From an uncultured Neomegalonema sp. (GTDB taxonomy: Bacteria > Pseudomonadota > Alphaproteobacteria > Rhodobacterales > Rhodobacteraceae), in contig CAZPTD010000001.1 of NCBI GenBank assembly GCA_964588915.1, positions 2,591 through 66,590 of the forward strand: a DNA stretch of 64,000 nt, read 5' to 3'. The translations under genes were made by a program, and so were the position numbers. Each line of letters begins with the position of its first letter. Within the stretch, counting starts at the first letter, position 1. Under the pieces are notes generated by a model. The model worked only from the letters and a program-made list of their open reading frames with translations, was not told the DNA's origin and made no database searches. Below, one piece after another: positions 36,181-51,119 of this stretch.

Positions 36181-38179
36181 CGAGGACCGGCCCGCCCTCC
36201 CCGAGGGCTACTTCCTCTACCACTCGATCGGCATGTATCCGAACAAGGAGGCGGAGCTGTCCGCCGCGATGGCCGAGTTCGCCCGCGTCTACGCCAAGCC
36301 GGACGACAAGCAATGGGGCTACATCCTCCGCAAGCGGCAGGATTTTCTCGACTATTGGCGGCATATTCTCGGCGCGCCGAAGGGCTCGCTCACCGCTTGC
36401 GACAGCGTCACCCAGGGCGCGCACTCGGTCGTCACCGGCCTGCCCGAGCGGTTTCTCAAGGGCAGACGCGTGCTCGTCGCCGCCGACTGTTTTCCTTCAG
36501 TCCACTTTCTCCTGGCGGGCCTGGCGCCGCGGCTCGGCTTCACGCTCGACACCGTGCCGAAGCGCGAAGGCGCGACCTGGGTCGAGGACGAGGATTTCCT
36601 CGCCGCCTGGGGCGCGGATGTCGGCCTGGCGCTCGTCACCTGGGTCACCTCGACCGCGTCCCACCGCTCCGACCTCGAGGCGCTCGTCGCCCATGGCCGC
36701 GCGATGGGCTCGATGATCGGCGTCGACATCACCCAGGCCGCCGGCCTCCTGCCCTTCGACGTCATGGCGCCGCGGATCGACTTCGCGGTCTCGACCAGCC
36801 TCAAATGGATGTGCGGCACGCCGGGCGCCGGCGTCCTCTATGTCGACAAGCCGCTCATCTCCGAGTTCGAGCCGGAGCTCCGCGGCTGGTTCTCGCAGAA
36901 CAATCCGTTCTCCTGGGCGCTCGACCGGTTCGCCTACGCGCCGGACATCCGCCGTTTCGACAGCGGCACGCCCGCCTCCGTCGCCGCGATCGCCTCGCTG
37001 CCGGCGCTCAGATGGCACGCAGGCCAGGACCGCGACGCGATGGTCCGCCACAACCGCGCGCTCGTCGACCGGATCATCGATCACGCGGACGCGCTCGGCC
37101 TGCCGCTGCAAAGCCCGCGCGCGGCGGAGAAGCGCGGCGGCTCGATGATGCTGCGGATGCCGAGCAAGGCCGAGGCCGGCGCCGTGGTCGGCGCGCTCGG
37201 GATCGAAGGGATTTCCGTCGATTTTCGCGACAGCCTGATGCGGCTCTCGCCGGGCGTGCTCAGCCGGGCGGAGCTGGTCGACAAGGCTTTCGACATCGCT
37301 CGGAGCGTGATGGCGCGCCGCGGCTATCGTTTCGCCGGAAGGCGGCCGAAAGACGCATCGGCGCCGAAGGGCGTCGATGCGGCTCGGGTCCTCGCCGATC
37401 TCGCCCTCGATCTCGCGCGCGGCCGCGTAAGGATCGTCGACTGCACGGCGCCGCTCGGGCCGGAGACGCCGATCCTGCGCCTGCCGAAGGGCTTCGCCAA
37501 GGACACGCCGAAGGTCGCTTTCCGCACGGGCGCCGACGCCGCCGACGGCGCGCTCTTCGCCTGGCGCGAGCTCGTGCTCGGCGAGCATGCCGGCACCCAT
37601 TTCGACGCGCCGCGTCACTGGCTCTCGGGCAAGGACTTTCCGGACGGCTATGCGGACACGCTCGACGTCCAGCGCCTCGTCGCGCCGGCCAACGTGATCG
37701 ACTGCTCGGCCGACTGCGCCGCCGATCCCGACTTCCTGCTCACCGTCGATCGGGTGAAGGCGTGGGAAGCCGAGCATGGCGAGATCGGCCCGGGCGAATG
37801 GGTGCTGATGCGCTCGGACTGGGACAAGCGCTCACATGACGAGGAGCTCTTTCTCAACGACGATCCCGACCCGATGGAGGACGGCTCGCACAGCCCGGGC
37901 CCGACGGCCGAGTGCGTCGACTATCTGATCTCCAAAGGAATCGTCGGCTGGGGCAGCCAATGCGTCGGCACCGACGCGGGCATGGCCGGCAAGTTCAGCC
38001 CGCCCTATCCGGCGCACAACCATATCCACCGGGACAACTGCTTCGGGCTCGCCAGCCTCGCCAATCTCGATCGGCTGCCGCCGAAGGGCGCGATCCTCAT
38101 CGCCGCGCCGCTCAAGATCGAGCGCGGCACCGGCAGCCCGATCCGCGCCCTGGCGCTCGTGCCGGGCGATGCGGACTGA
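36167..38179 (+). CDS. Two-domain fusion: N-terminal kynureninase-like class-V PLP enzyme plus C-terminal cyclase/kynurenine-formamidase-like hydrolase
   Basis: 670 aa.
- N-terminal domain: DITQAAG...DFAVSTSLKWMCGTPGAG (PLP-Lys context), RGWFSQ, KRGGSMML and MRLSPG parallel the kynureninase motifs as I remember them.
- C-terminal domain: an intact HAGTHFDAPRHW cyclase motif.
- Operon context: the start overlaps the LivM-like stop by 14 nt. Confidence 0.85.
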   Translation: MTIHSEDRPALPEGYFLYHSIGMYPNKEAELSAAMAEFARVYAKPDDKQWGYILRKRQDFLDYWRHILGAPKGSLTACDSVTQGAHSVVTGLPERFLKGRRVLVAADCFPSVHFLLAGLAPRLGFTLDTVPKREGATWVEDEDFLAAWGADVGLALVTWVTSTASHRSDLEALVAHGRAMGSMIGVDITQAAGLLPFDVMAPRIDFAVSTSLKWMCGTPGAGVLYVDKPLISEFEPELRGWFSQNNPFSWALDRFAYAPDIRRFDSGTPASVAAIASLPALRWHAGQDRDAMVRHNRALVDRIIDHADALGLPLQSPRAAEKRGGSMMLRMPSKAEAGAVVGALGIEGISVDFRDSLMRLSPGVLSRAELVDKAFDIARSVMARRGYRFAGRRPKDASAPKGVDAARVLADLALDLARGRVRIVDCTAPLGPETPILRLPKGFAKDTPKVAFRTGADAADGALFAWRELVLGEHAGTHFDAPRHWLSGKDFPDGYADTLDVQRLVAPANVIDCSADCAADPDFLLTVDRVKAWEAEHGEIGPGEWVLMRSDWDKRSHDEELFLNDDPDPMEDGSHSPGPTAECVDYLISKGIVGWGSQCVGTDAGMAGKFSPPYPAHNHIHRDNCFGLASLANLDRLPPKGAILIAAPLKIERGTGSPIRALALVPGDAD

Positions 38180-38338
38180 CGCCGCCGCGTTCTCGTCGGT
38201 CGTCCAAGCCTTCGAACCAGTCGAGCGCGAGCGCCGGTCCCGCCGTCAGGAGCGCCGCGATCGACGGAACGATCCGATGGCCGAGCCGAGCCGACGGCGG
38301 CGATTGTCTATTCGTCTCGGGTTCCGTAGGCAGGCGCG

Positions 38339-39712
38339 ATGACGGATCCGATCGACATGCGCCGGCTGCTCGCCGACGCGGCGGCGCGCGCCGCGGACTA
38401 TCTCGAGAGCCTGGACGCGCGGCCGGTCGCGCCTCGGCCGGCGGCGGTCGAGAGCCTGGCGCGGGCGCTCGACGAGAACCTGCCCGAGCGCGGGATCGCG
38501 CCGACCGACGTGCTCGAATTCGCGGACCGGCTCGGCTCGCCCGCCACGGTGGCGAGCGCCGGCGGACGGTATTTCGGCTTCGTCACCGGCGGCGCGCTGC
38601 CGGCGACGGCGGCGGTCAACGTCTTGGCCGGCGCCTGGGACCAGAACTGCTTCAGCTGGGTCAGCTCGCCGGCGATCGCGGCTTTCGAGGAAACCGCGCT
38701 GCGGTGGCTGAAGGAGGCGCTCGGACTCCCGGCGACCGCCGAAGGCGCCCTCGTCACCGGCGCGACGATGGCGAACCTCACCTGCCTGGCCGCCGCCCGC
38801 AACCGCGTGCTGCAGAGGGCCGGTTGGAACGTCGACAGCCAAGGGCTGTTCGGCGCGCCGGAGATCACGGTCGTCGTCGGCGAGGAGGCGCACGCGTCCC
38901 TCTTCAAGGCGTTGTCGATGCTGGGCATGGGGCGGGACCGCGTGCGCCGCGCGCCGTCGGACGATCAAGGGCGGATCATCGCGCGCGACCTGCCGCCGAT
39001 CGACGGCCCGACGATCGTCTGCATCCAGGCCGGCAACGTGAACTCCGGCGCCTTCGATCCGGCCGAGCCGCTGATCGACTGGGCGCATGGCGGCGGCGCG
39101 TGGGCGCATGTCGACGGCGCCTTCGGCCTCTGGGCGCGCGCCTCGCCGACGCGTTCGGCGCTGGCGAAAGGCTTCGAGGCGGCCGATTCTTGGGCGCTCG
39201 ACGCCCATAAATGGCTGAACACGCCCTATGATTCCGGCGTCGCCTTGGTCGCCGACGGAGCCGCCTTGGCCGAGGCGATGTCGGTCAGCGGCGCGTATCT
39301 CTTGGCGAGCGGCCGGCGCGACGCGATCAACCTGACGCCGGAAGCGTCGCGGCGCGCGCGGGCGATCGAGATCTGGGCGGCGCTCAAGTCGCTGGGACGT
39401 TCCGGGTTGTCGGCGCTCATCGACAGGAATTGCCGCCAGGCGCGCCGGCTCGCCGACGGTCTGCGTCACGCCGGCGTCGAGGTCTTGAACAACGTCGTTC
39501 TCAACCAGGTCGTCGTCGCGTTCGGAGACGAGCGCCGAACCGAACAGGTGATCGGCGCGATCCAAGCGGACGGCGAGTGCTGGTGCGGCGGCACCGTGTG
39601 GCGCGGTCGGGCGGCGATGCGGATCAGCGTGAGCTCGTGGGCGACGACGGACGAGGACGTCGAGCGCGCGTTGCGTTCTATCCTGAAGGCCCACGGGCGC
39701 GCGCTCGGCTGA
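38339..39712 (+). CDS. Group II pyridoxal-phosphate-dependent decarboxylase family protein
   Basis: 457 aa. Motifs: TGATMANLTCLAAAR, and the PLP-lysine motif SWALDAHKWLNTPYDSG. Confidence 0.85.
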   Translation: MTDPIDMRRLLADAAARAADYLESLDARPVAPRPAAVESLARALDENLPERGIAPTDVLEFADRLGSPATVASAGGRYFGFVTGGALPATAAVNVLAGAWDQNCFSWVSSPAIAAFEETALRWLKEALGLPATAEGALVTGATMANLTCLAAARNRVLQRAGWNVDSQGLFGAPEITVVVGEEAHASLFKALSMLGMGRDRVRRAPSDDQGRIIARDLPPIDGPTIVCIQAGNVNSGAFDPAEPLIDWAHGGGAWAHVDGAFGLWARASPTRSALAKGFEAADSWALDAHKWLNTPYDSGVALVADGAALAEAMSVSGAYLLASGRRDAINLTPEASRRARAIEIWAALKSLGRSGLSALIDRNCRQARRLADGLRHAGVEVLNNVVLNQVVVAFGDERRTEQVIGAIQADGECWCGGTVWRGRAAMRISVSSWATTDEDVERALRSILKAHGRALG

Positions 39713-39801
39713 TCCGGCGCCGGCATTCGCAAGGGTCGCGCTCTTCGAGGCATGCGGATCGGCCGCCGACGGCGGCGCGTCGTCAAATCAGGGAGGCCGT
39801 C

Positions 39802-40995
39802 ATGCAGAGGCCGCTCGAGGGCGTCCGGGTCCTCGACCTCACCAACGTCCTCGCCGGGCCGTTCTGCTGCCATCAGCTCGCGCATCTCGGCGCCGAGGTG
39901 ATCAAGGTCGAAGCGCCCGGCCGCGGCGATCTCGCGCGACAGCTCGGCGCGGACGCGGCGCTCAACGACGCCGGCATGGGCGTCTCGTTCCTGGCGCAGA
40001 ACGCCGGCAAGAAGTCGGTGACGCTCAATTTGAAACACGAGCGCGGCAAAGCTCTTCTGAAGCGCCTGGTCGAGACCGCCGACGTTCTGGTCGAGAATTT
40101 CCGGCCCGGCGTGATGGCGCGGCTCGGCCTCTCCTACGACGCGCTCGCGGCGGTCAATCCGCGCCTCGTCTACTGCGCGATCTCCGGCTTCGGCCAGGAC
40201 GGACCCTGGGTCCATCGCCCGGCCTACGACCAGATCATCCAGGGCGCCTCGGGCGTGATGTCGATCACCGGCGACGCCGAGAGCGCGCCGCTCCGCGTCG
40301 GCTATCCGATCGCCGACACGATCGGCGGCATGACCGCGGCCTTCGCGATCTCGGCGGCGCTGAACGCGAAGAAGCGCGGCGCCTTCATCGACGTCTCGAT
40401 GCTGGAGGCGGTGCTCGCGACCATGGGCTGGGTGATCTCGAACTATCTCATCGCCGGCGTGACGCCGACGCCGAACGGCAACGAGAACGTCACCTCGGCG
40501 CCGTCGGGCGCGTTCAAGGCCGGCGGCGGCCTCGTCAACATCGCCGCCAACAAGGACGAGCAATGGGCGCTCCTGGCGCGGCATATCGGTCGCGAGGACC
40601 TGCTCGCGCGGCCGGAATACGCGACGCGCGAGGATCGCAAGCGCAACCGCTTCGCGCTCAAGGCCGAGATCGAGACCGTGCTCGAGACGCGTCCGGCGCG
40701 CGACTGGGCGACGGAGCTCAACCGCATCGGCGTGCCCGCCGGCGCGGTGCTCGACGTTCCCGCGGCGCTCGCGGCGCCGCAGATCGCCGAGCGCGGCTTC
40801 CTCGCCACCTTCGAGGGCGCGCCCGGCGTCGGTCGCGACGTCGCCGTGGCCCGCACCGGCGTGAAGATCGACGGCGCGCCGCCGAGCGTGGAGACGCCGC
40901 CGCCGCTTCTCGGCCAGCATAATGACGAGATCTTCGGCGCGCTCGGGCTCTCGGCCGAGGAGATCGCCGCGCTCGCAAAGGAGGGCGCGATATGA
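39802..40995 (+). CDS. Family III CoA-transferase (CaiB/BaiF family)
   Basis: Last 397 codons of ORF 39430..40995. The ATG at 39802 follows GGGAGG. Motifs: GVRVLDLTNVLAGPFCCHQLAHLGAEVIKVE and ENFRPGVM. Confidence 0.9.
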   Translation: MQRPLEGVRVLDLTNVLAGPFCCHQLAHLGAEVIKVEAPGRGDLARQLGADAALNDAGMGVSFLAQNAGKKSVTLNLKHERGKALLKRLVETADVLVENFRPGVMARLGLSYDALAAVNPRLVYCAISGFGQDGPWVHRPAYDQIIQGASGVMSITGDAESAPLRVGYPIADTIGGMTAAFAISAALNAKKRGAFIDVSMLEAVLATMGWVISNYLIAGVTPTPNGNENVTSAPSGAFKAGGGLVNIAANKDEQWALLARHIGREDLLARPEYATREDRKRNRFALKAEIETVLETRPARDWATELNRIGVPAGAVLDVPAALAAPQIAERGFLATFEGAPGVGRDVAVARTGVKIDGAPPSVETPPPLLGQHNDEIFGALGLSAEEIAALAKEGAI

Positions 40996-41831
40996 GCGGT
41001 TCATCGAGCGACGTCTCGGATTGGTGGACGACGTCGATCATCGACATGGCGCCCGGCCAAATCCGCCTCCGCGGCCGGCCGATCGAAGAGCTGATCGGCG
41101 CCGTCAGCTTTCCGCAGATGATCTGGCTCCTTCTGCGCGGCGCGCTGCCGAGCGAGGGCGAGGCGCGTCTCCTGGAGGCGGCGCTCGTCGCGGCGGTCGA
41201 TCACGGGCCGCAGGCGCCTTCCATCGCCGCGGCGCGCATGGCCGTCACCTGCGGGCTCGGGCTGAACGGCGCGATGGCCTCGGCGGTCAACATGCTGGAC
41301 GACGTCCATGGCGGCGCCGGCGAGCAGGCGGTCGCGCTCTACGGCCGGATCGACGCGGCCGCGACGGGCGGCGAGGCGCTCGAGCGCGCGACCGAGCGGC
41401 TGATCGACGAGTGGACCACGGACCGGAGCGCCTTCGTTCCGGGCTTCGGCCATCGCTTCCACAAACCCGTGGATCCGCGCGCGCCGCGGCTCTTGGCGCT
41501 CGTCGACGACGCGGCCGCCTCCGGCGTCTGCGGCGGCCGCTTCGCCGCGATCGGCCGCGCGATCGAGGCCGCGCTCGCCGCGAAGAAAGGCAAGCCCGTG
41601 CCGATGAACATCGACGGCGCCACCGCGGTGATCTACGCCGAGCTCGGCTTCGCGCCGCCGCTGGCGCGCGGGCTCTTCTGCCTATCGCGGTCCGTCGGCG
41701 TCCTCGCCCACGCCTGGGAGCAGATGGGCCAGGGCGGCCGCAACAAAGGTCCGACGCCGCCGCGCTACCGCTGGACCTATGACGGGCCGAACCCGATCGA
41801 CGCCGATCGAAAGAACGACGACAAGCTGTAG
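40992..41831 (+). CDS. Citryl-CoA lyase-like protein (short citrate-synthase-fold family)
   Basis: 279 aa. ATGA overlap with the CoA-transferase stop. Citrate-synthase-like motifs VPGFGHRFHK and NIDGATAVIY. Confidence 0.8.
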   Translation: MSGSSSDVSDWWTTSIIDMAPGQIRLRGRPIEELIGAVSFPQMIWLLLRGALPSEGEARLLEAALVAAVDHGPQAPSIAAARMAVTCGLGLNGAMASAVNMLDDVHGGAGEQAVALYGRIDAAATGGEALERATERLIDEWTTDRSAFVPGFGHRFHKPVDPRAPRLLALVDDAAASGVCGGRFAAIGRAIEAALAAKKGKPVPMNIDGATAVIYAELGFAPPLARGLFCLSRSVGVLAHAWEQMGQGGRNKGPTPPRYRWTYDGPNPIDADRKNDDKL

Positions 41832-42354
41832 CCGCCCGAGACGGCGCGTCCTCGGGCCTGAGACGATCTCCAGCTCCAACGCCAAGTCGAGCGCGCCGCT
41901 TCGGAGCCGCCGCGCCGGACGACGCGAAAGAAATCACGCATCATCCGACACGCGTTGATCGAGACGACGCCGAGCGCCGCGCCGTTGGACGTTGTTGAGC
42001 AGCCGCCATTGACGCGAGACCGGCCGACCTGCAAGGCTCCGTCAACGGCCGCTAAGGGCCATGTCGAGCCTTGGCGCTCCTGGTTGCGACGGCTTGAGCG
42101 ATTTCCGAGCCGGATCTTCTCGCTCGTCAGCCCGACGCCGTTCGCGGCGACCCTTCGGGACATGCCGAAAGGCGGCGACGCTCTCAGGGCGCTGCGGCGG
42201 CTTTAGGCGTTGTGGTCTTCGATCTGATCAATTGAAATGAATTGCCGGATCGCGCCGTCAGCAGGCCGAGCGCGACAAGACGGCGCCGCCCCGTGCGGGC
42301 AGGTCGGCCGAGGGGCGCAGCCGGGCGCGATCACCGAGCAGAGGGAGGACAGGG

Positions 42355-43698
42355 ATGGGAAGCTGTGGACCGGGATACGCGTCGCCGTCCGAGGCGATGA
42401 GGGCGCCGCGTGAAGAGCTGCTCTATACGATCGCGATCTACACCGGCACGGGCGTTCAGAAGCCCGACTACCTCTGCACCATCGACGCTGATCCGAAGAG
42501 CGCGACCTATTCGCAAGTCATTCACCGGCTGGAGATGCCCGGCATCGGGGACGAGTTGCATCACATGGGCTGGAACGCCTGCTCGTCCTGCCACGACGAC
42601 GCCTCGATGAGCCGTCGCTATCTGATCGTGCCGGGCGTGCGCTCGTCGAACCTGCATATCGTCGACACGATCGATCCCCGAGCGCCGAAGCTTCACAAAG
42701 TCATCGAGGGGAGCGAGATCAAGGCGAAGACCAACCTGTCCGCCCCCCATACGGTGCATTGCCTGGGCTCGGAGATCATCATCTCGATGCTCGGCGACGC
42801 CAAGGGCGAGGCGCCCGGCGGCTATCTCCATCTCGACAAGGACTTCAACATCATCGGCCGCTGGGAGTCCTCGATGGGCGACATCCCCTTCGGCTACGAT
42901 TTCTGGTACCAGCCCCGCCATAACGTGATGGCCTCGAGCGAATGGGCGGCGCCGAACACGTTCATGCCGGGCTTCGACCTCGAGGAGGTCGGGCACCTGA
43001 AATACGGCCGCCGCATCCATCTCTGGGACTTCGAGAAAAAGGAGCCGAAGCAGACCTTCTACCTCGGCGAGGACGGGCTCATTCCGCTCGAAGTCCGCTT
43101 CCATCACGACCCGGATTCGACCCATGGCTTCTGCGGCGCCGCGCTCTCCGCCAATATCATTCACTGGTGGAAGGACGGCGACGAATGGAGATGGGAAAAG
43201 ATCATCGATGTCGAGAACGAGCCGCATCCGGATTGGCCGATCCCGGTGCCGGGCGTGATCTCGGTCATCCTCCTCAGCATGGACGACCGGTTCCTCTATC
43301 TCTGCAATTGGCTGCACGGCGATATCCGCCAGTACAACATCGAGAATCCGCATAAGCCGGTCCTGACCGGCCAGGTCTGGATGGGCGGACTTCTGGGCCG
43401 TGCGCCCGAGGTCAACGGCGTCCGGGTCACCGGCGGCCCGCAGATGATCCAGCTCAGCCTCGACGGCCAGCGGCTCTACGTCACGACCAGCCTGTTCAGC
43501 ACCTGGGACAACCAGTTCTATCCGGAGATCCGCACCAATGGCGGGTGCATGCTGATGGTCAACTGCGACACCGAGACGGGCGGAATGGAGATCGATCCGG
43601 ACTTCGTCGTCGACTTCGGCAAAGAGCCGAACGGGCCGTCGCGCTGTCACGAGACCCGCTATCCCGGCGGCGACTGCACGAGCGACATTTGGCTATGA
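42355..43698 (+). CDS. Selenium-binding protein SBP56 family (methanethiol oxidase MtoX-like), no signal peptide
   Basis: 447 aa, unmistakably SBP56-like throughout (GPGYASPSEAM, ELHHMGWNACSSCH, YDFWYQPRHNVM, CHETRYPGGDC). GGGAGG RBS upstream. Confidence 0.92.
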   Translation: MGSCGPGYASPSEAMRAPREELLYTIAIYTGTGVQKPDYLCTIDADPKSATYSQVIHRLEMPGIGDELHHMGWNACSSCHDDASMSRRYLIVPGVRSSNLHIVDTIDPRAPKLHKVIEGSEIKAKTNLSAPHTVHCLGSEIIISMLGDAKGEAPGGYLHLDKDFNIIGRWESSMGDIPFGYDFWYQPRHNVMASSEWAAPNTFMPGFDLEEVGHLKYGRRIHLWDFEKKEPKQTFYLGEDGLIPLEVRFHHDPDSTHGFCGAALSANIIHWWKDGDEWRWEKIIDVENEPHPDWPIPVPGVISVILLSMDDRFLYLCNWLHGDIRQYNIENPHKPVLTGQVWMGGLLGRAPEVNGVRVTGGPQMIQLSLDGQRLYVTTSLFSTWDNQFYPEIRTNGGCMLMVNCDTETGGMEIDPDFVVDFGKEPNGPSRCHETRYPGGDCTSDIWL

Positions 43699-44060
43699 AG
43701 ACCCGCACCGTCACGCTCGCCAACCGCGACGGCGCCCGCTACGAGGTCGACGCTCGGCGCCCGTTGCTCGACACGCTGCGCGAGCAGGGCGTGGATCTTC
43801 CCTACGGTTGCAAGTACGGCGGCTGCATCACCTGCGCCGCGAAACTGAGATCGGGCGAGATCGACCAGCGCCGGCAGGTCGCGCTCAACAACCGGCAACT
43901 CGCGAAGGGCTACGTGATCCTCTGCGTCGCCCGGCCGCTGACGGACGTCACGCTGGAGATCGGCGTCGACAGCCATGACGAGCTCTATCGCAACCCGTTT
44001 CTCGATCCGTTGGAGCCGCACGAGTTGAAGCCCGACATCGCGACATCGAGGGAGTCATAA
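43695..44060 (+). CDS. Plant-type [2Fe-2S] ferredoxin
   Basis: Last 121 codons of ORF 43545..44060. The ATG overlaps the SBP56 stop (ATGA). Cys pattern C-x4-C-x2-C-x29-C (GCKYGGCITC ... ILCVARP). Confidence 0.88.
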   Translation: MKTRTVTLANRDGARYEVDARRPLLDTLREQGVDLPYGCKYGGCITCAAKLRSGEIDQRRQVALNNRQLAKGYVILCVARPLTDVTLEIGVDSHDELYRNPFLDPLEPHELKPDIATSRES

Positions 44061-44063
44061 GGC

Positions 44064-44528
44064 ATGCCCGAAGCCGATATCGACCGCATCTACGACTACC
44101 CGCCCGGCTATCTCGCCGAGATCCTGCGGGAAACCCGGACCATCGCAATGGTCGGAGCGAGCGCGGACCGGACCAAGTTCAGCTACGGCGTGCTGCGAGT
44201 GCTGCACGAGACCGGCTACGAGATGCTGCCGGTGAACCCGAACCCCGAGGTGAAGGAGATCCGCGGCGTCAAGGTCTATCGTTCGCTCAAAGAGATCGAC
44301 CGCCCCGTCGACATGGTCGAGGTGTTCCGCCCCAAGGAGGAACTCTACGCCGTCGCCGAGCAGGCCATCGAGATCGGCGCCAAGGTGCTGTGGGGGCAGA
44401 TCGGCGTCTATGACGACGCAGCCGCAAAGTTGGCCGAGGGCGCGGGGCTCAAGGTCGTCATGAACCGCTGTCCCAAGATCGAGCTGTTCCGGCCGTTTTG
44501 GAAACCGAGGCTGGACCTCCCGATCTGA
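44064..44528 (+). CDS. CoA-binding-domain protein (YccU-like)
   Basis: 154 aa. Starts 3 nt after the ferredoxin stop. IAMVGASADRTKFSYGVLRVLHETGYEMLPVNPN is typical of the CoA-binding fold. Confidence 0.85.
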   Translation: MPEADIDRIYDYPPGYLAEILRETRTIAMVGASADRTKFSYGVLRVLHETGYEMLPVNPNPEVKEIRGVKVYRSLKEIDRPVDMVEVFRPKEELYAVAEQAIEIGAKVLWGQIGVYDDAAAKLAEGAGLKVVMNRCPKIELFRPFWKPRLDLPI

Positions 44529-44800
44529 GAGCTTGTCGGTCGCCGGCGGCCTGGCGCGCCGGCCGGACGACGCTTCGCGGCGCTCTGGCGCTGCCGGGCC
44601 TCGTTCCGTCGTTTCCGTTCACGATTTGGGGCTTCAGGATCTCTATCCAGGGTGTCCGGGTCGGGAACGCTGTTCGTGACCTGCATCCCCTTGCGGATCG
44701 ATCGCGGGCGTTCGGCGCAACACGACGTGTCGCGACTCCCGACAAATCAGTGGAAGAACCGCGGAATGAGCCGCGCCGTCTCTGAAGGAGGGAATTGCAC

Positions 44801-45943
44801 ATGCTTCTGTCTGACGACTTCGGCTTCGGCGCGCAGATCCGCAGATCCCCTTATTTCGACGCGACGGTCCGCTGGGGCGCCAAAGGCTTCTCCGTTTACA
44901 ACCACATGTATATTCCGCGGGATTTCGGCGACCCGGAACAGAATTTCTGGAATCTCGTCAACGACGCGATCCTCTGCGACGTCGCGGTCGAGCGCCAGGT
45001 GGAGATCACCGGGCCGGACGCCGCCCGCTTCGTTCAGTATCTGACCCCGCGCGACATCTCGACGATGGCCGTCGGTCAATGCAAATACGCGCTCGTCACC
45101 AACGCCGACGGCGGGATCCTGAACGATCCGATCCTGCTCCGGCTCGGTGAGCGCCGCTTCTGGCTGTCGCTCGCCGACAGCGACATCCTGCTCTGGGCGC
45201 AGGGCGTCGCCGTACATTCGGGCATGGACGTCACGATCCGGGAGCCGGACGTGTCGCCGCTGCAGCTGCAGGGGCCGAAGTCGGGCGCGATCATGCGCAC
45301 GCTCTTCGGCGAGAGCGTCATGGACCTGCGCTATTTCTGGCTGCGCGACGTGCGGCTGGATGGAATTCCGCTGATCGTTTCGCGCACCGGCTGGTCCGGC
45401 GAATTGGGATACGAACTCTATCTGCGGGACGGGTCGCGCGGCGACGAGTTGTGGGAGAGGATCATGGCGGCGGGCGAACCCTTCGGTCTCAAGCCCGGGC
45501 ACACTTCTTCGATCCGCCGCATCGAAGCCGCCATGTTGTCCTATCACGCCGACGCGGACATCGACACCAATCCCTTCGAACTCGGGCTCGACCGGCTCGT
45601 CAACCTCGACATGGAGGCCGACTTCATCGGCAAAGCCGCGCTGCGCCGCATTCGCCGAGAAGGCGTCCGCCGTCGGCAGGTGGGGCTCGTGATCGACGGC
45701 CCGCCGTTGAAGGGGCCCAACACGACGTTCTGGCCCGTCAAGAAGGACGGGGCCGCCATAGGCAAGGTGACCTCCGCCGTCTATTCGCCCCGGCTCGACC
45801 AGAATATCGCATTGGCGATGATCTCGGCCGATCTCGCCGTCATCGGCAACGCGCTCGAGGTCGTCGCCAATTCCGAAACGGTCGGGGCCGCGATCGTCGA
45901 GCGGCCGTTCTACGACCCGAAGAAAAAGATCGCCGCCGCTTGA
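44801..45943 (+). CDS. GcvT-family aminomethyltransferase, DmdA (DMSP demethylase)-like
   Basis: ORF 44795..45943. The ATG at 44801 is preferred because AAGGAGGG lies 8 nt upstream. RRSPYFDATVRWGAKGFSVYNHMYIPRDF, CDVAVERQVEITGPDA, GGILNDPILLRL...FWLSLADSD and SRTGWSGELGYELY resemble DmdA-type sequences from memory. Confidence 0.85.
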   Translation: MLLSDDFGFGAQIRRSPYFDATVRWGAKGFSVYNHMYIPRDFGDPEQNFWNLVNDAILCDVAVERQVEITGPDAARFVQYLTPRDISTMAVGQCKYALVTNADGGILNDPILLRLGERRFWLSLADSDILLWAQGVAVHSGMDVTIREPDVSPLQLQGPKSGAIMRTLFGESVMDLRYFWLRDVRLDGIPLIVSRTGWSGELGYELYLRDGSRGDELWERIMAAGEPFGLKPGHTSSIRRIEAAMLSYHADADIDTNPFELGLDRLVNLDMEADFIGKAALRRIRREGVRRRQVGLVIDGPPLKGPNTTFWPVKKDGAAIGKVTSAVYSPRLDQNIALAMISADLAVIGNALEVVANSETVGAAIVERPFYDPKKKIAAA

Positions 45944-45968: not shown

Positions 45969-46197
45969 GTCCTGATGGCGCATCGCGCGAGATCCGCGCG
46001 CTCGTTCTTTCCGACGAAATCGTATTGATGCGTATTGACATGAGAGCGCGTCCGAACCCTTCGGAGCCGCCTTGCTCCGGCTTGATCGTCGGCTCGAGCC
46101 GCAGTCCTGCCGGCCTCCGGCCGGCTGGCGACCGACCCGCCCCGGGGCGGCCGCCGCTCCGCTCCAGCGTTTCGGCTCCGAACGGTTCGAATGCGCC

Positions 46198-47262
46198 CTA
46201 GTCGATGCCGAGGGCGGCGCGCCAGCGGCGCAGGAAGCGCTCGCGCTTATGCTGATCCAAGCCGACGAGCAGGATCGGCGAGAGCCGCAAGGGGCGCAGC
46301 GACGTCGTCGCGCCGTCGAAAACGAGCCGATCCTCGGCGCCGCCGCCGGTGACGTCGAAGATCAGATACGCCTCTTCGAGCGCGGCCCGCCCCTCCGGCG
46401 ACAACAGATAGTCGATGAAACGGCCCGCCGCCGCGCTCTCGCGCGCATGCCGCGGGATCAGCACGGCGCGGCTCAGGATCAAGGTGTAGTCGCTCGGCGC
46501 GACGACGACGATGCTCGGATCCTCCTCCGCCCGGGCGAGCGCATAGGGGCCGAGCACGTTGTAGGCGACGAGATAGCGCCCGGTCGCCACGCCGTCGACG
46601 AGATCGCTCGAGCAGCAGGCGGTCTCGACGCCCGCGCGGCCGAAGGCCTCCAAGAGGCTCCCGAAGGTCGTCGCCTGCTGGGAGTCGGCGACGGCGAGCA
46701 TATAGCCGAGCCCCGAGGCTTCGATATCGTAGGTCGCGATCCTGCCGGCGTAGCGGGTGTCGGCCGGCCGCAGCAGATCGAGCAGGTCGAAGCGCGAGCG
46801 CGGCGCTTCATCGGGCGGCACCAGATCGCGATTGTAGATGATCACCGCCGGCTCGCTGGTCACGCCGAAGACCTCGTCGCGCCAGCGCGCGCTCGCCGAC
46901 AACGCCGCGGTCGCCTCGGATCGGTAGGTGAGCGCGCAGCCGTCATTGACGAGCTTCACCTGCAGATCGATCGCGGAGGAGATGACGAGATCGGCCGCCG
47001 CGGCGCCGTCGCGACAGGCCTCGGCCGTCGCCTCGTAGAGATCGTTCGACGCCCATTGCTCGTACTCGACGCGCAGTCCCGGCGTTGCGGCGACGAAGCC
47101 TTCGAGCGCCGGCGCGAACACCGGAATGTCGGTCGTTCCGCGCACGACGAGCGCGACGGGCGCGGCGTCCGGGCCGAAGCTCTTCACCGCCTCTGGCGTC
47201 TGGCCGCCGGCCGGCGACGCGAGCGCCAGACAGGCCGCCGCCAATGCAAAGCGCCGCTTCAA
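46198..47262 (-). CDS. Periplasmic solute-binding protein (family-1 / iron- or polyamine-type fold) with no cognate ABC permease or ATPase nearby
   Basis: C-terminal 354 codons of ORF 46198..47604. The proposed TTG start at 47262 overlaps the kinase stop (TTGA). Signal LKRRFALAAACLALASPAGGQ. The start is uncertain. Confidence 0.72.
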   Translation of the reverse strand: MKRRFALAAACLALASPAGGQTPEAVKSFGPDAAPVALVVRGTTDIPVFAPALEGFVAATPGLRVEYEQWASNDLYEATAEACRDGAAAADLVISSAIDLQVKLVNDGCALTYRSEATAALSASARWRDEVFGVTSEPAVIIYNRDLVPPDEAPRSRFDLLDLLRPADTRYAGRIATYDIEASGLGYMLAVADSQQATTFGSLLEAFGRAGVETACCSSDLVDGVATGRYLVAYNVLGPYALARAEEDPSIVVVAPSDYTLILSRAVLIPRHARESAAAGRFIDYLLSPEGRAALEEAYLIFDVTGGGAEDRLVFDGATTSLRPLRLSPILLVGLDQHKRERFLRRWRAALGID

Positions 47263-48647
47263 GAGCCCGCCTTCTTCGCCGACGCCAAGACGATCGCCGC
47301 CTCGAAGGCGCCGTCCGACGTCCTGGCGAATCGCAGCTTGCCGCCATGCGCCGCCGCGACGGCGCGCACGATCGACAGGCCGAAGCCCGCGCTTTCGGAC
47401 GAAACTCCTCGGTCTCTGGCCGGCCGCGCGGCCGCGTCGCGCCAAAGATGCTGCGGGACGCCCTCGCCGCGATCGCGGACACCCATCCACGCGCTGCCGC
47501 CCTCCTGGCCGACGACGACGCTGACGGGCGCCGCGCCATGGCGAAAGGCGTTGACGACCAGATTCTTGACCGCCTCGACCAGCGAAAGAGAGTCGGCGAC
47601 GCACGGGACGGGCTCTTCGGGAAGCTCGAGCCGAAGCTCGGCTTTCGCCGCCAAGATCTGGTGGTCGCTCTCGTTCACCGCTTCGATCGCGACCGCGCGC
47701 AGATCGATCCGCTCATGCGGCGACGCGTCGGCGCGGTGGATGACGAGCGCGTAGCTGAGGAGCTGATCGGTCAGCCGGCTGAGCTTGACCAAACGCTCAT
47801 GGATCCAGACCACCTGCGCGCGCTGGCGCTCGGGCGCTTCTTCGTCGGCCGCGAGCTCGGCCTGGGCGCGCAGGGCGGCGATGGGCGTGCGCAGCTGATG
47901 CGACGCGTCGCCGATCATCCGGCGCATCACGGTGACCTGACGGTCGATCCGCGCCATGAACCGGTTGAGCGTTCCGACCAGGCTCGAGACTTCGCGCGGC
48001 GCCGTGATGTCGATCCGGCTCAAGTCCTCCGGCGCGCGCGCGGCGAGAACGCGCTCGATCCGCCGAAGCGGCCCGAGCGCCGAGCGCGCCGCGAAGATCG
48101 CGAGCGCCGACATGACGAGCCCCGCCAGCCCGGCGGCGATCAACGCGCGCTCGGTGATCGCGCGCGCCATCGCGTCCCGAGCGATCATCGTTTGCCCGAC
48201 GATGATCGTGACCTCGCCGCGAAATCCCCGCTCCGCGAAAGGGCGCCGCACCGCGGCCAAGCGCACGACGTCGTCGCCGAAGCGCCCGAAATAGAGCAGG
48301 TCGCGGTCCTGCGGCGGCGCCGCTTCCGCATAGCCGGTCAGGAGCCGCCCGTCCGGCGCGTAGACCGCATAGACGATGCGGTCTTCCGGCGCCAAGGCGA
48401 GCAGCTCGAACGCGGATCTCGGGATGTCGACGAGAACCTCTCCGCGCTCGAGCTCGATCGAGCCCGCGATGTCGTTGGCCGCGCCGAGCAGGAGCCGATC
48501 GAACGACTCCTCGGCCGCGTTTCGGCCGAACGCGAAGGCGGCCACCGCCACGGCGACGCCGCCGACCAGGAAGGTCACGATCATGGCGACGGCGATCCGC
48601 GCCGTCAGCGAATGAGCGCCTCGGCTGGCGTCAGCCTTGGTCGACAA
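47259..48647 (-). CDS. tctE: Sensor histidine kinase, TctE-like
   Basis: 462 aa. N-terminal sensor segment with FDRLLLGAANDIAGSI (TctE/QseC-type), H-box ASHQLRTPIAAL, and an ATPase domain (G-box GFGLSIV). Confidence 0.85.
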   Translation of the reverse strand: MSTKADASRGAHSLTARIAVAMIVTFLVGGVAVAVAAFAFGRNAAEESFDRLLLGAANDIAGSIELERGEVLVDIPRSAFELLALAPEDRIVYAVYAPDGRLLTGYAEAAPPQDRDLLYFGRFGDDVVRLAAVRRPFAERGFRGEVTIIVGQTMIARDAMARAITERALIAAGLAGLVMSALAIFAARSALGPLRRIERVLAARAPEDLSRIDITAPREVSSLVGTLNRFMARIDRQVTVMRRMIGDASHQLRTPIAALRAQAELAADEEAPERQRAQVVWIHERLVKLSRLTDQLLSYALVIHRADASPHERIDLRAVAIEAVNESDHQILAAKAELRLELPEEPVPCVADSLSLVEAVKNLVVNAFRHGAAPVSVVVGQEGGSAWMGVRDRGEGVPQHLWRDAAARPARDRGVSSESAGFGLSIVRAVAAAHGGKLRFARTSDGAFEAAIVLASAKKAGS

Positions 48648-49302
48648 GCTGGTAACCGAGGCCGCGCAGGGTCTTGATCGAGACCGAGCTTGCGCTCAAC
48701 TTGCGCCGCAGCCGCGCGATGTAGATCTCGATGGCGTTTATGCCGACCTCTTCTTCATTGAAGCAAAACATCCGATCGTGGATTTTCTCTTTCGAAACCA
48801 CACGCCCGCGATTCGTCAGCAAGATCTCGAAAAGGCTCATCTCGCGCCGCGTCAGCGTCAGGGCTTCTCCGCGCACGGCGACGGCCGGCCCGACCGGATC
48901 GAACCGCACGTCGCCGAACTCGAGGATCGGCGCGCAATTCTCGCTCGAACGCCGCGCGATCGCGCGGACGCGCGCCTGCACTTCGCGCAGGTCGAAGGGC
49001 TTCACCACATAGTCGTCGGCGCCGTCGTCGAGCGCCGCGATGCGCTCGTCGACCTCGGCGCGCGCCGTCAAGATCAGCGCCGGCGTGCGCTTGCCATTGG
49101 CGCGCAGCTTCGGAAGCAGGTCGGTGCCGTCGCCGTCGGGCAGCTCGATGTCGAGGATCACGACGTCGTAGTCGGACACGGCGAGCATGTCGCGCGCGTC
49201 GGCGACGCTGGCCGCGTGGTCGACGGCGTCGCCGCGCCTTGCGAAGCTGATCACGATGGCGTCGGCGACGTCCTGCGCGTCTTCGACGAGAAGCAACCGC
49301 AT
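48631..49302 (-). CDS. tctD: OmpR-family response regulator, TctD-like
   Basis: 223 aa. Receiver domain (MRLLLVEDA...DVVILDIELPDGDG) plus a winged-helix output (IKTLRGLGYQL). Confidence 0.9.
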   Translation of the reverse strand: MRLLLVEDAQDVADAIVISFARRGDAVDHAASVADARDMLAVSDYDVVILDIELPDGDGTDLLPKLRANGKRTPALILTARAEVDERIAALDDGADDYVVKPFDLREVQARVRAIARRSSENCAPILEFGDVRFDPVGPAVAVRGEALTLTRREMSLFEILLTNRGRVVSKEKIHDRMFCFNEEEVGINAIEIYIARLRRKLSASSVSIKTLRGLGYQLVDQG

Positions 49303-49604
49303 TCGTCCCTGTCCCTTCGGCGACGTTGCGCGCGCCGTTGGGCGACGAGCCTAGAGGCATTCCGCGCGCCAGCCAAGGCGAGGGCGCTCCGGACGGCGAA
49401 TTGCGCCTTCGGGCGAACGATGACAGGTTCGTGAAAGGATTTGCGTCTAGGTCTGACGCTGTCCGATCCGAGTCGCCGCAAGAGCGGCTCCAAGAAGTAG
49501 GACGAAGATCCGCGCGTCCACTTGACCTTTGTCCGGCGACGCGCGACGGCAAGAGTCTCCGAGCGCAAGGGCTCGGACAAAACGAACGCGATCGGGAGGA
49601 TCGA

Positions 49605-50585
49605 ATGAAACAGCTTCAACGCGGCCTCGCGGCCGCGGCGCTCGCCGTGAGCGCCGTCGCCGCCGGCGGCTTCGCCTCGCCGGCCTCCGCCGAGGAATGC
49701 ATCGCCCCTGCGAACCCGGGCGGCGGCTGGGACTTCACCTGCCGCACGATCGGCCAGATCATGTACGAGATCGGCGTCGTCTCCGATCCGATCCAGGTGA
49801 CGAACATGGCCGGCGGCGGCGGCGGCTTGGCCTACACTCATGTCGTCAACGAGCGCGGAACCGACGAAGATCTGATCGTCGCGGCGTCCTCGGCGACGGC
49901 GACGCGACTCGCGCAAAACGCCTATGCCGGACACACGCCGGACGAAGTGCGGTTCCTCGGCGCGATCGGCGCGGATCCGGGCGTCATCGTCGTCGCGGCG
50001 GACTCGCCCTATCAGTCGCTCACCGACCTTCTCGACGCGGTGCAGGCGAACCCGGCCTCGATCACTTTCGCCGGCGGCTCCGCGGCGGGCGGCTTCGATC
50101 ATCTCAAAGTGCTGATGGCGCTGGCGCGCGTCGGCTACACCGACATCGCGTCGGTGAAGTATGTCGGCCTCGACGGCGGCGCCGACGCGATCACGCAGAC
50201 GATCGGCGGCTTCACCCAAGCGATGACCGGCGACATGTCGGAGGTTGTCGGCTTCCTTCAGAGCGGCGACATCCGCGTGCTGGCCGTCTTCACCGAAGAG
50301 CGCGTGCCGGGCTTCGAGGACATCCCGACCGCGCGCGAGCAGGGCGTCGACGTCATCGCGGTGAACTGGCGCGGCCTTTACGTGCCGGGCGAGATCTCGG
50401 ACGAGGCCTATCAGCGCTGGGTGGACGCGCTGCAGCAGGTCGCCGACTCGGAGGAGTGGGCCGAGGCCATGGTGGCGAACGGTCTGGCGCCGTTCACGCT
50501 CGTCGGTCCGGAGTTCGAGGACTATCTCGCCGGCGTGATCGGCGAGATCCAAACGATGTCGCGCGATCTCGGCGTCATCCAATAA
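49605..50585 (+). CDS. tctC: Tripartite tricarboxylate transporter substrate-binding protein
   Basis: ORF 49326..50585 trimmed to the ATG at 49605 after GGGAGGA. Signal MKQLQRGLAAAALAVSAVAAGGFASPASA. TctC-like body (TNMAGGGGGLAYTHV). Confidence 0.88.
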   Translation: MKQLQRGLAAAALAVSAVAAGGFASPASAEECIAPANPGGGWDFTCRTIGQIMYEIGVVSDPIQVTNMAGGGGGLAYTHVVNERGTDEDLIVAASSATATRLAQNAYAGHTPDEVRFLGAIGADPGVIVVAADSPYQSLTDLLDAVQANPASITFAGGSAAGGFDHLKVLMALARVGYTDIASVKYVGLDGGADAITQTIGGFTQAMTGDMSEVVGFLQSGDIRVLAVFTEERVPGFEDIPTAREQGVDVIAVNWRGLYVPGEISDEAYQRWVDALQQVADSEEWAEAMVANGLAPFTLVGPEFEDYLAGVIGEIQTMSRDLGVIQ

Positions 50586-50586
50586 C

Positions 50587-51087
50587 ATGAGCGACCGCGT
50601 CTTCGGCCTGATCCTATTCGGCGTCGCCGGCTTCTTCATCTACACGGCGACGCAGATTCAGACGAGCCTCTTGTCCGACCCGGTCGGGCCGAAGATGTTC
50701 CCCATCATTGTCGGCTCGGTGGCGATCGTCGCCGCCATCGTCGTCATGGCCTTTCCGGACGACGAGCCGGATTGGCCGCGCCCCAGGAGCCTCGGCGTCA
50801 TCGCGATCGCCATCGTCGTGCTCGGCCTCTACGCCTATTCGGTGAACCCGGCCGGCTTCCTCGTTCCGACCGCCATCGCGTCCGGAGCGATCAGCTACTT
50901 GATCGCGCCGAAGCCCGCTCAGGCCGTGCTCGCCGGCCTCGGCGTCGCGATCGTTCTCTTCTTCGTCTTCAAATTCGCCCTCGGCCTCAGCCTCCGCGGA
51001 TTCCCGCGCGAGTGGGCGGAGCTCAATGGCGGGATCGACGACATCGGTCGCTTCTTTCGCGACGTGTTCTCGGATCGCGAGCGATGA
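50587..51087 (+). CDS. tctB: Tripartite tricarboxylate transporter small permease
   Basis: 166 aa, 4 TM segments, immediately downstream of tctC. GPKMFPIIVG motif. Confidence 0.85.
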   Translation: MSDRVFGLILFGVAGFFIYTATQIQTSLLSDPVGPKMFPIIVGSVAIVAAIVVMAFPDDEPDWPRPRSLGVIAIAIVVLGLYAYSVNPAGFLVPTAIASGAISYLIAPKPAQAVLAGLGVAIVLFFVFKFALGLSLRGFPREWAELNGGIDDIGRFFRDVFSDRER

Positions 51088-51119
51088 CGCGCCGCGCTGA
51101 CCACGAACGGAGCCGCTGA

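Follow-up and report, generated by a model that had tools for sequence, protein, structure and literature searches.

A conserved ferredoxin and CoA-binding protein encoded beside a cytoplasmic SBP56 oxidase in an uncultured Neomegalonema sp.

Why should a predicted cytoplasmic member of the methanethiol-oxidase superfamily be encoded together with a [2Fe-2S] ferredoxin and a coenzyme A (CoA)-binding protein? This question is raised by a 64,000-nt stretch of DNA (hereafter the window) from an uncultured Neomegalonema sp. (contig CAZPTD010000001.1), in which four plus-strand genes within 42355-45943 encode an SBP56 protein, a ferredoxin, a CoA-binding protein and a GcvT-family protein. Methanethiol is a branch point of marine dimethylsulfoniopropionate (DMSP) sulfur, which can be assimilated, oxidized or lost as gas. 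The four-gene arrangement had been noticed in a preliminary description made from the sequence alone, and it proved to be real on the basis of open reading frames and profile matches to protein domains. The oxidase and its general role are already known, whereas its partnership with the ferredoxin and the CoA-binding protein appears not to have been described. Here, we report that the genes for these two proteins are tightly coupled and strongly conserved partners of the oxidase gene, and not a local accident.

Conservation of the gene triplet

In the window, the SBP56 gene (42355..43698, 447 aa) and the ferredoxin gene (43695..44060, 121 aa) share an ATGA stop/start overlap at 43695..43698 (ctATGA, with the ferredoxin ATG inside the SBP56 TGA), and the CoA-binding gene (44064..44528, 154 aa) starts 3 nt past the ferredoxin TAA; both junctions are as the preliminary description had read them. 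The CTA codon that forms the overlap accounted for 6 of 875 sampled leucine codons (0.7%) and is the sole CTA in the SBP56 gene. Such an overlap is expected to couple the translation of SBP56 and the ferredoxin.

Related loci were collected in two scans, both of which kept the closest 80 matches, so that the counts describe one clade and not the whole family. The forward scan, based on an SBP56 alignment with one genome per species, gave the best 80 loci (81-94% identity) of about 600 or more, and these were combined with three Chloroflexota/Anaerolineae loci and the window itself into a set of 84 stretches. All three genes were adjacent in 78 of the 84 stretches, the other six being cut or atypical. 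The order was SBP56-ferredoxin-CoA-binding in 73 stretches and SBP56-CoA-binding-ferredoxin in five, and this deviating order was seen in Chloroflexota and two Alphaproteobacteria with adjacency kept. The overlap between SBP56 and the ferredoxin was retained as NTGA in 73 of 82 loci through a terminal NTA codon of SBP56, and the gap between the ferredoxin and CoA-binding genes was almost always between -4 and +7 nt. The triplet spans Alpha- and Gammaproteobacteria and Chloroflexota, and was found in five Mesorhizobium species, many roseobacters, about 17 SAR11 single-cell genomes, SAR116, Geminicoccaceae, Granulosicoccaceae, Porticoccaceae, Arenicellales, Spiribacter and Chloroflexota. Flanking genes vary widely among these loci, so that common descent of a larger block cannot account for the adjacency. 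In the reverse scan, the CoA-binding protein was searched against metagenome contigs, and 49 of the best 80 loci had enough upstream sequence to be informative; a ferredoxin gene and an SBP56 gene stood beside the CoA-binding gene in 48 of them. Thus, the neighborhood survey suggested in the preliminary description was positive in both data sets, and the concern raised there that the triplet might not be conserved was not borne out. The triplet is near-invariant in the clade of the window and appears to be new.

The sole exception in the reverse scan (L123, 2919-5938) has an integrase-like remnant in place of SBP56 and most of the ferredoxin. It keeps a CoA-binding gene followed by a GcvT-like gene, as in the window, and otherwise invariant positions are substituted, with the Leu of a VLRVLHE motif replaced by Pro, so that this module appears to be decaying. 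A 604-aa homolog (P0009), considered as a possible SBP56-ferredoxin fusion, was rejected as merely an over-extended N-terminal gene call.

Outside this clade the partners become fewer. Two homologs with 71% and 68% identity to the window SBP56 (P0085 and P0117) have no adjoining partners, and the same is true of those in Rubrobacter (64%), Haloterrigena (55%) and Phyllobacterium (43%); the existence of such homologs implies that the core chemistry does not need the partners. The homolog in Thioalkalivibrio sp. HK1 (P0089, 71% identity) adjoins a ferredoxin gene only, and that in Paracoccus seriniphilus, which is of the RdMTO type (68.6% identity), is followed by a ferredoxin gene and then by a DUF2182 gene. 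Since the ferredoxins of the triplet, of Thioalkalivibrio sp. HK1 and of P. seriniphilus have a GVESHDxLYxNPF hallmark in common, the ferredoxin is the older partner and the more widespread one, and judging from the Paracoccus locus the RdMTO type most probably has an adjoining ferredoxin as well. At this locus (L169, plasmid p449297, 3986-8288), DUF2182 (by description a membrane protein predicted to bind metal) takes the place of the CoA-binding gene. A gene for S-(hydroxymethyl)glutathione dehydrogenase (glutathione-dependent formaldehyde dehydrogenase) was also seen near the Paracoccus SBP56 gene, which would fit formaldehyde as a product.

Identity of the oxidase and its partner proteins

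The window SBP56 matched the Pfam family PF05694 (SBP56) over its full length (682 bits; residues 4-447 against positions 3-453 of the 453-position model), and its best match in the PDB was 2ECE (422 bits). ATG 42355 is the first start codon past the upstream in-frame stop and is preceded by a GGGAGG ribosome-binding site (42343..42348, 6 nt 5' of the start, read from the sequence). With no earlier start, an N-terminal extension is not possible, and the N-terminus (MGSCGPGYASPSEAM) is polar and, judged from the sequence, has no hydrophobic leader; therefore, the protein should lack a signal peptide and be cytoplasmic. To this extent the preliminary description, which had proposed a leaderless cytoplasmic SBP56 protein of the methanethiol-oxidase superfamily, holds. 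It had also called the protein MtoX-like, which has to be revised: the score against the NCBIfam MtoX equivalog was 135.4 bits, far below the cutoff of 650, and the low score, the missing leader and the lack of SCO1/SenC or MauG neighbors ruled out identity with periplasmic MtoX. The neighbors of the window SBP56 gene are instead the Fer2, CoA_binding_2 and GcvT-like genes downstream and a citrate-synthase-like gene upstream. MtoX, known from Hyphomicrobium sp. VS and Ruegeria pomeroyi (SPOA0269), belongs to the same superfamily, shares the overall reaction, also has two conserved accessory genes and is induced in DMSP and methanethiol metabolism, but it carries a signal peptide and is periplasmic (PMC5739008). 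Its accessory genes, which are SCO1/SenC and MauG as the preliminary description had correctly stated, encode a copper chaperone and a di-haem peroxidase (PMC5739008), whereas those in the window encode a ferredoxin and a CoA-binding protein.

The six residues H69, H70, H132, H135, D182 and E246 of the window SBP56 are invariant across homologs and correspond to the copper ligands proposed for SELENBP1/RdMTO, which in SELENBP1 are His73/74, His137/140, Asp189 and Glu252 (PMC13603461). The motifs GWNACS, HTVHC and GGDCT were also found, with cysteines C76, C136 and C441, and the oxidases of cluster 1 Rhodobacteraceae are characterized by GWNACS, HTV(I)HC and GGDC(S/T) (PMC10936201). We placed the protein, together with RdMTO, in the 'LHHMGWNACSSCH' branch of cluster 1 of Cao et al. 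On these grounds the window SBP56 is assigned to the cytoplasmic SELENBP1/RdMTO type of the methanethiol-oxidase superfamily, and the full conservation of the catalytic residues suggests that it catalyzes copper-dependent methanethiol oxidation. It thus resembles RdMTO and SELENBP1 in its full-length family match, its lack of a signal peptide, its six copper ligands and its three cysteine motifs, and differs from RdMTO in that its clade has an additional C431 and near-invariant ferredoxin and CoA-binding genes; eukaryotic SELENBP1 is encoded without either partner.

The closest SBP56 relatives in the genome scan, with 92-94% identity, were from metagenome-assembled genomes of Rhodospirillales and Pseudomonadota. 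The triplet clade and the ferredoxin-linked homolog of Thioalkalivibrio share a conserved N-terminal Cys-Cys pair and C431, neither of which is present in the stand-alone homologs P0085 and P0117. The window protein itself has Ser-Cys at residues 3-4 (42361-42366), with Cys431 at 43645-43647. The correlation has exceptions, in that C431 is missing in Paracoccus and the Cys-Cys pair occurs in Rubrobacter. These cysteines may form a redox site served by the partners. A protein annotated as 'Methanethiol oxidase [Nymphon striatum]' (P0049), from a sea spider, was 83% identical to the window SBP56; as this is far above the approximately 53% reported for RdMTO and human SELENBP1, its presence in the N. 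striatum assembly is probably due to bacterial contamination.

Much is already published on the homologs, which are described as cytoplasmic copper-dependent oxidases of methanethiol and other alkylthiols (PMC10936201, PMC13603461, PMC10362175). RdMTO and human SELENBP1 oxidize methanethiol and other short alkyl thiols in vitro with a strict dependence on copper, and copper-dependent methanethiol oxidation has been demonstrated for RdMTO, SELENBP1 and SEMO-1; RdMTO also takes ethanethiol and propanethiol, and its activity was shown with O2 (PMC13603461). In these homologs the C-S bond of CH3SH is cleaved with O2 to yield formaldehyde and reduced or sulfane sulfur (PMC13603461, PMC10936201), and since copper/O2 chemistry has been shown in them, the enzyme class is to be regarded as known and characterized. 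The products of the isolated enzyme are disputed: H2S, H2O2 and HCHO were reported on the one side, and sulfane sulfur without H2O2 on the other (PMC13603461, PMC10936201), the latter in an earlier study of RdMTO and RlMTO (PMC10936201). Recombinant RdMTO from Escherichia coli contained 0.17 Cu per protein and was active nonetheless (PMC13603461). Both RdMTO and SELENBP1 turn over in vitro without a ferredoxin or a CoA-binding protein (PMC10936201, PMC13603461), and the partners are thus not strictly needed for turnover.

The RdMTO peptides given in the supplement of PMC10936201 (N-terminal NGSCCAGPGY, C-terminal GGDCSSDIWI / YPGGDCSSDIWI) match the P. seriniphilus SBP56 and not the clade of the window, which would place RdMTO in a sister subgroup; this placement is drawn from terminal peptides in a machine-read supplement. 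The preliminary description had held that ordinary ferredoxin-independent activity would speak against a variant electron-transfer or thiol/CoA-linked chemistry, and such activity is on record for RdMTO of the sister group (PMC10936201, PMC13603461). Because RdMTO is ferredoxin-independent, the variant chemistry can be put forward as a hypothesis only, from the conserved linkage and from the disagreement over what the isolated enzyme produces. Fig. S10 of PMC10936201 lists another protein, WP_011048093.1, whose N-terminus is MECCGPGYAS-like and which falls in the same branch as the window SBP56. RlMTO falls in a branch that lies much farther away. Judging from its accession range, WP_011048093.1 may be from R. 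pomeroyi DSS-3. If so, this organism would have the module in addition to MtoX, which could explain the residual methanethiol removal of its mtoX mutant (PMC5739008).

The ferredoxin (Fer2, 56 bits) has the plant-type cysteine pattern C39-X4-C44-X2-C47-X29-C77 (CX4CX2CX29C), as the preliminary description had seen. It scored 77.9 bits against TIGR02008, just under the cutoff of 81.15, and cyanobacterial ferredoxins matched it at about 74 bits; a weak match to the YfaE model was also found. Plant and cyanobacterial ferredoxins in the PDB align only to approximately residue 97. Past this point, a SHDxLYxNPF (SHDxLYRNPF) segment is nearly invariant in the orthologs, and in proteobacteria so is the tail LDPLxPHELKADIA. 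A similar situation was observed for the CoA-binding protein (PF13380, CoA_binding_2, 128 bits), whose match to the YccU-type protein 2DUW in the PDB (112 bits) extends only to residue 143, and which also matches 1Y81, 2D59 and 1IUK. It contains an invariant block TKFSYGVLRVLHE and an invariant Cys136 in an NRCPKIE motif common to YccU, and its invariant C-terminal LFRPFWKPRL is not found in YccU. Family membership suggests that this YccU-like protein binds CoA; a text search of the literature on the function of YccU-type proteins found nothing useful. The conserved tails of both partners are most simply read as docking segments, and they indicate that both proteins belong to specialized, dedicated subfamilies. 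In the SAR11 loci (L043-L080), a second CoA_binding_2 paralog (129 aa, 44% identical) lies right after the first, for example at 10197-10583 of L048. These loci also have a Rieske oxygenase gene and an enoyl-CoA hydratase gene upstream (confirmed by Pfam), and by eye EgtB/EgtD-like genes upstream and a dimethylglycine-dehydrogenase-like gene, electron transfer flavoprotein (ETF) alpha/beta genes and an ETF-QO gene downstream.

Genomic setting, proposed mechanism and alternatives

Neighbor counts over the 84 stretches revealed several recurrent genes around the triplet. An IclR regulator gene was divergent and upstream in 27-30 loci, and an enoyl-CoA hydratase gene lay immediately upstream, mostly on the same strand and SAR11 included, in 27 loci. 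A single-domain rhodanese gene stood directly 3' of the CoA-binding gene in 13 loci, and genes for acyl-CoA synthetase, acyl-CoA dehydrogenase and an ortholog of the window GcvT-like protein occurred nearby in 7-10, 6 and about 13 loci, respectively. The fullest version was found in Phaeobacter inhibens pP30_b, where an IclR gene is followed by the divergent series SBP56, ferredoxin, CoA-binding protein, rhodanese, metallo-beta-lactamase (MBL)-fold hydrolase, enoyl-CoA hydratase, acyl-CoA synthetase and GcvT-like protein; a Chloroflexota locus has the triplet and then an MBL-fold gene and a rhodanese gene. When the Phaeobacter proteins were searched by tblastn against the whole 64 kb, only the GcvT-like gene was found, and no homologs of the IclR regulator, rhodanese, dioxygenase, hydratase or synthetase were present; about a third of the related loci have the IclR gene that the window lacks. 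The window thus carries a minimal version of the module, namely the core triplet plus the DmdA-like gene.

Judged by its gene classes, the setting resembles DMSP demethylation with handling of sulfane sulfur. The GcvT-like protein, an AMP-forming acyl-CoA synthetase, an acyl-CoA dehydrogenase and a crotonase-type hydratase are the same classes as in the DMSP route DmdA-DmdB-DmdC-DmdD/AcuH. On the other hand, the demethylase and the ligase score under the DmdA and DmdB cutoffs (for the acyl-CoA synthetase, 288 bits against a DmdB equivalog cutoff of 822), and of these classes the window has the demethylase-like gene alone. Rhodanese and MBL-fold genes in the fuller operons recall the Blh-type modules of rhodanese and persulfide dioxygenase, and the pP30_b MBL-fold protein scored 367 bits against the dioxygenase half of Blh; they differ in being two separate genes, in missing the full-length Blh cutoff of 625 and in being absent from the window. 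The succession of demethylation-class genes and genes for sulfane-sulfur disposal is in line with sulfane sulfur having been reported as a product of these oxidases.

The GcvT-like protein (44801..45943, 380 aa, GCV_T and GCV_T_C domains) had been described as nearer to DmdA than to the T protein of glycine cleavage, and this was supported by both NCBIfam scores (DmdA 355 bits, trimethylamine N-oxide (TMAO) demethylase 228, GcvT 187) and PDB matches (262 bits to 3TFH, with 35% identity to Pelagibacter ubique DmdA; 169 to 1YX2, the Bacillus subtilis GcvT; 157 to TMAO demethylase). It misses the DmdA equivalog cutoff of 410, however, as do its orthologs (377-385), and genuine P. ubique DmdA scores 627. 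The orthologs are 82-86% identical across Hyphomicrobiales and Rhodobacterales and bear only the NCBI name 'glycine cleavage T C-terminal barrel domain-containing protein'. These comparisons suggest a DmdA-like sister subfamily, probably a tetrahydrofolate-dependent demethylase feeding a CoA-dependent pathway; a formaldehyde-trapping role may also be considered. The pairing of a DmdA-like gene with the oxidase gene, which the preliminary description had called functionally coherent, recurs at about 13 of 83 loci from genomes and at 10 of 80 from metagenomes, although the oxidase is not of the MtoX type and the DmdA cutoff is not reached. On another P. inhibens plasmid (CP010700.1; L084, 7347-12087), an ortholog heads an AsnC-regulated operon with OsmC, enoyl-CoA hydratase and acyl-CoA synthetase genes, adjoined by conjugation genes, and SBP56 is absent from the 17-kb stretch read. 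An OsmC gene was likewise seen near the triplet in Mesorhizobium.

On balance, we favor the view that the three co-translated proteins form the core of a conserved methanethiol-handling module in which the partners act together with the oxidase. SBP56 would serve as a cytoplasmic copper-dependent oxidase that cleaves the C-S bond of CH3SH with O2 to give formaldehyde and reduced or sulfane sulfur. The ferredoxin, made in fixed proportion to the oxidase through the stop/start overlap, might dock on it by the SHDxLYxNPF segment and pass single electrons to the copper/cysteine centre, which would keep the centre in, or return it to, the active reduced state, and/or provide the two additional electrons by which O2 could be reduced to water and not to H2O2. 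The CoA-binding protein could present the thiol of CoA as an acceptor or carrier of the leaving sulfur, in the form of a CoA persulfide or a mixed disulfide, and in the fuller operons the sulfur would then go to the rhodanese and the persulfide dioxygenase encoded directly downstream. The module would represent the end of a DMSP-demethylation-like route, with the enoyl-CoA hydratase as the methanethiol-releasing step. The disputed products and the 0.17 Cu per RdMTO hint that the isolated enzyme is incomplete. A bolder version, a three-component enzyme of marine and soil bacteria in which a mononuclear copper fed by the ferredoxin works without H2O2 release and the sulfur leaves as CoA persulfide on the YccU-like subunit, is speculative and in our opinion unlikely; if true, it would be a ferredoxin-coupled copper enzyme, would provide the first function for the YccU family and would explain why two laboratories obtained different products from an isolated subunit.

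Several points weigh against a functional partnership of this kind. RdMTO and SELENBP1 are active in vitro alone, so the partners are dispensable for turnover, and they are absent at P0085, at P0117, in Rubrobacter, Haloterrigena and Phyllobacterium and in eukaryotes. The enzyme tested, RdMTO, appears to belong to a sister subgroup, and its own neighborhood is represented here by a Paracoccus proxy. In addition, no three-gene fusion was present in the homolog match lists, and no ferredoxin reductase was conserved near the module.

The main rival assigns the ferredoxin and the CoA-binding protein to maturation or maintenance, as a cytoplasmic counterpart of SCO1/SenC and MauG, with the active oxidase then working alone. 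Their task could be the reduction of Cu(II) to Cu(I) for loading, or the re-reduction of an oxidized cysteine/copper site, much as YfaE acts with ribonucleotide reductase. In the YfaE-NrdB pair a small plant-type ferredoxin gene likewise adjoins that of an O2-using metalloenzyme, and the weak YfaE match points the same way; this is an analogy only, as the present ferredoxin belongs to another subfamily with a SHDxLYxNPF tail and the metal is copper, not di-iron. The Paracoccus locus, where the ferredoxin is followed by DUF2182 (predicted to bind metal) and not by a CoA-binding gene, would also suit a maturation role, as would the co-encoding of periplasmic MtoX with copper-maturation genes (PMC5739008) and the finding that RdMTO made without partners was poorly copper-loaded (0.17 Cu per protein), though still active (PMC13603461). 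We nevertheless consider this explanation possible but doubtful: one-to-one coupling of translation is more in keeping with a stoichiometric partner than with a chaperone acting catalytically, no role in copper insertion is known for a CoA-binding protein, and the rhodanese and dioxygenase neighbors point to product handling. Tight coupling to a one-electron carrier, together with the failure of one laboratory to find H2O2 (PMC10936201), could also mean that the ferredoxin is an electron acceptor, the enzyme being a methanethiol dehydrogenase that passes two electrons to the ferredoxin and on to respiration without O2 or H2O2. However, activity was demonstrated with O2 (PMC13603461). No downstream acceptor is conserved nearby. 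Moreover, plant-type [2Fe-2S] ferredoxins have very low potentials and are normally electron donors, and a dehydrogenase thus seems quite improbable.

It might also be that the natural substrate is not methanethiol from DMSP but some other small thiol or selenol, set free from a CoA thioester that the neighboring ligase and hydratase make, with the DmdA-like protein demethylating a DMSP analog or trapping formaldehyde on tetrahydrofolate. GcvT domains of TMAO demethylase and dimethylglycine oxidase are known to capture formaldehyde. The missed equivalogs (355 against 410 bits for DmdA, where true DmdA scores 627, and 288 against 822 for DmdB) would agree with such a substrate, and RdMTO takes ethanethiol and propanethiol, too (PMC13603461). 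We regard this as rather unlikely, because DmdA is still the best match of the GcvT-like protein by a wide margin over GcvT and TMAO demethylase, the L084 operon (GcvT-like protein, OsmC, hydratase and ligase, with no SBP56 in 17 kb) fits a demethylase-first pathway, and methanethiol is the best-documented substrate of the family. That the linkage has no functional meaning and the three genes merely travel as a mobile cassette is hardly credible. The module does occur on plasmids (Phaeobacter pP30_b) and its phylogenetic distribution is patchy, but adjacency survives the changed gene order in Chloroflexota and two Alphaproteobacteria, flanks differ widely among loci, both partners are specialized and have invariant tails, and the overlap is kept using rare codons. 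In the window, moreover, the G+C content at third codon positions (GC3) of the four genes is 0.86-0.89, compared with 0.87-0.95 in other sampled genes, which gives no sign of recent import.

The two RdMTO papers mention neither partner. The word 'ferredoxin' was absent from the RdMTO papers (PMC10936201, PMC13603461), the MtoX paper (PMC5739008) and the DMSP and SAR116 papers checked, and the terms 'selenium-binding', 'dimethylsulfoniopropionate' and '2Fe-2S' were not found together in the open-access and bioRxiv literature, although an earlier description elsewhere is possible. The constant joint encoding of the three proteins suggests that studies of the oxidase alone have left out two partners. 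Marine surveys and metagenome pipelines already count SBP56 as 'SELENBP1/mtoX' methanethiol oxidase, and the enzyme is frequent in ocean metagenomes, where it forms thousands of 90%-identity clusters, some of them exceeding 8,000 members, and was found in SAR11, SAR116 and roseobacters. If the partners take part, the products (H2S and H2O2 or sulfane sulfur) and rates obtained in vitro would be incomplete, the fate of DMSP sulfur in these cells would need to be revisited, the disagreement between two laboratories would have a testable explanation, and a first functional handle on YccU-type CoA-binding proteins would be available. The analysis also sets apart a DmdA-like subfamily that is associated with a ligase and a hydratase. 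The results are thus relevant to marine sulfur cycling and to SELENBP1 enzymology, with the mechanism still a proposal.

Other features of the window

The start of the GcvT-like gene was placed at ATG 44801, because a GGAGG motif lies 9 nt upstream and the orthologs are 380 aa long; TTG 44795 is less likely. With this start, the gap to the CoA-binding gene is 272 nt (44529..44800), so that the gene does lie downstream, as had been noted, at a slightly larger distance than the 270 nt given. No terminator-like site was found in this spacer. Neither the spacer nor the leader gave an Rfam match to a riboswitch or structured RNA at E <= 1, and the spacer folded no better than shuffled sequence (z-score -0.60); the null Rfam result and the ordinary folding spoke against a regulatory RNA in either place. 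A scan for sigma-70 promoters found none and is uninformative for this kind of organism. A terminator-like GC hairpin (45984-46000) followed by a T-rich run is present 3' of the GcvT-like gene (45984..46010, plus strand).

The G+C content dips at 42-46 kb (0.64, compared with about 0.70). As the GC3 of the module is near the values for the other genes sampled in the window, the dip is attributed to amino-acid composition, and recent horizontal transfer was rejected as its cause; no flanking repeats were found around the module. A 27-nt inverted repeat (46043-46069 and 46173-46199), whose arms are 85% complementary and separated by 103 nt, is located in the intergenic region 3' of the GcvT-like gene.

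Upstream, on the plus strand, 36167-41831 is a closely packed run of genes for an aminotransferase class V/cyclase fusion (670 aa), a decarboxylase dependent on pyridoxal phosphate, a family III CoA-transferase and the citrate-synthase-like protein, the last of which consists of the C-terminal domain only (279 aa) and has a start that overlaps the CoA-transferase stop. The CoA-transferase and citrate-synthase-like genes were considered as parts of the module and rejected, as they are not conserved beside the triplet elsewhere; the run looks like a separate CoA-dependent pathway. Downstream, the minus strand (46198-49302) carries genes for a periplasmic solute-binding protein, a 2CSK_N-domain sensor kinase and a response regulator of the OmpR type, and these are followed on the plus strand (49326-52643) by genes for the TctC and TctB components of a tripartite tricarboxylate transporter.

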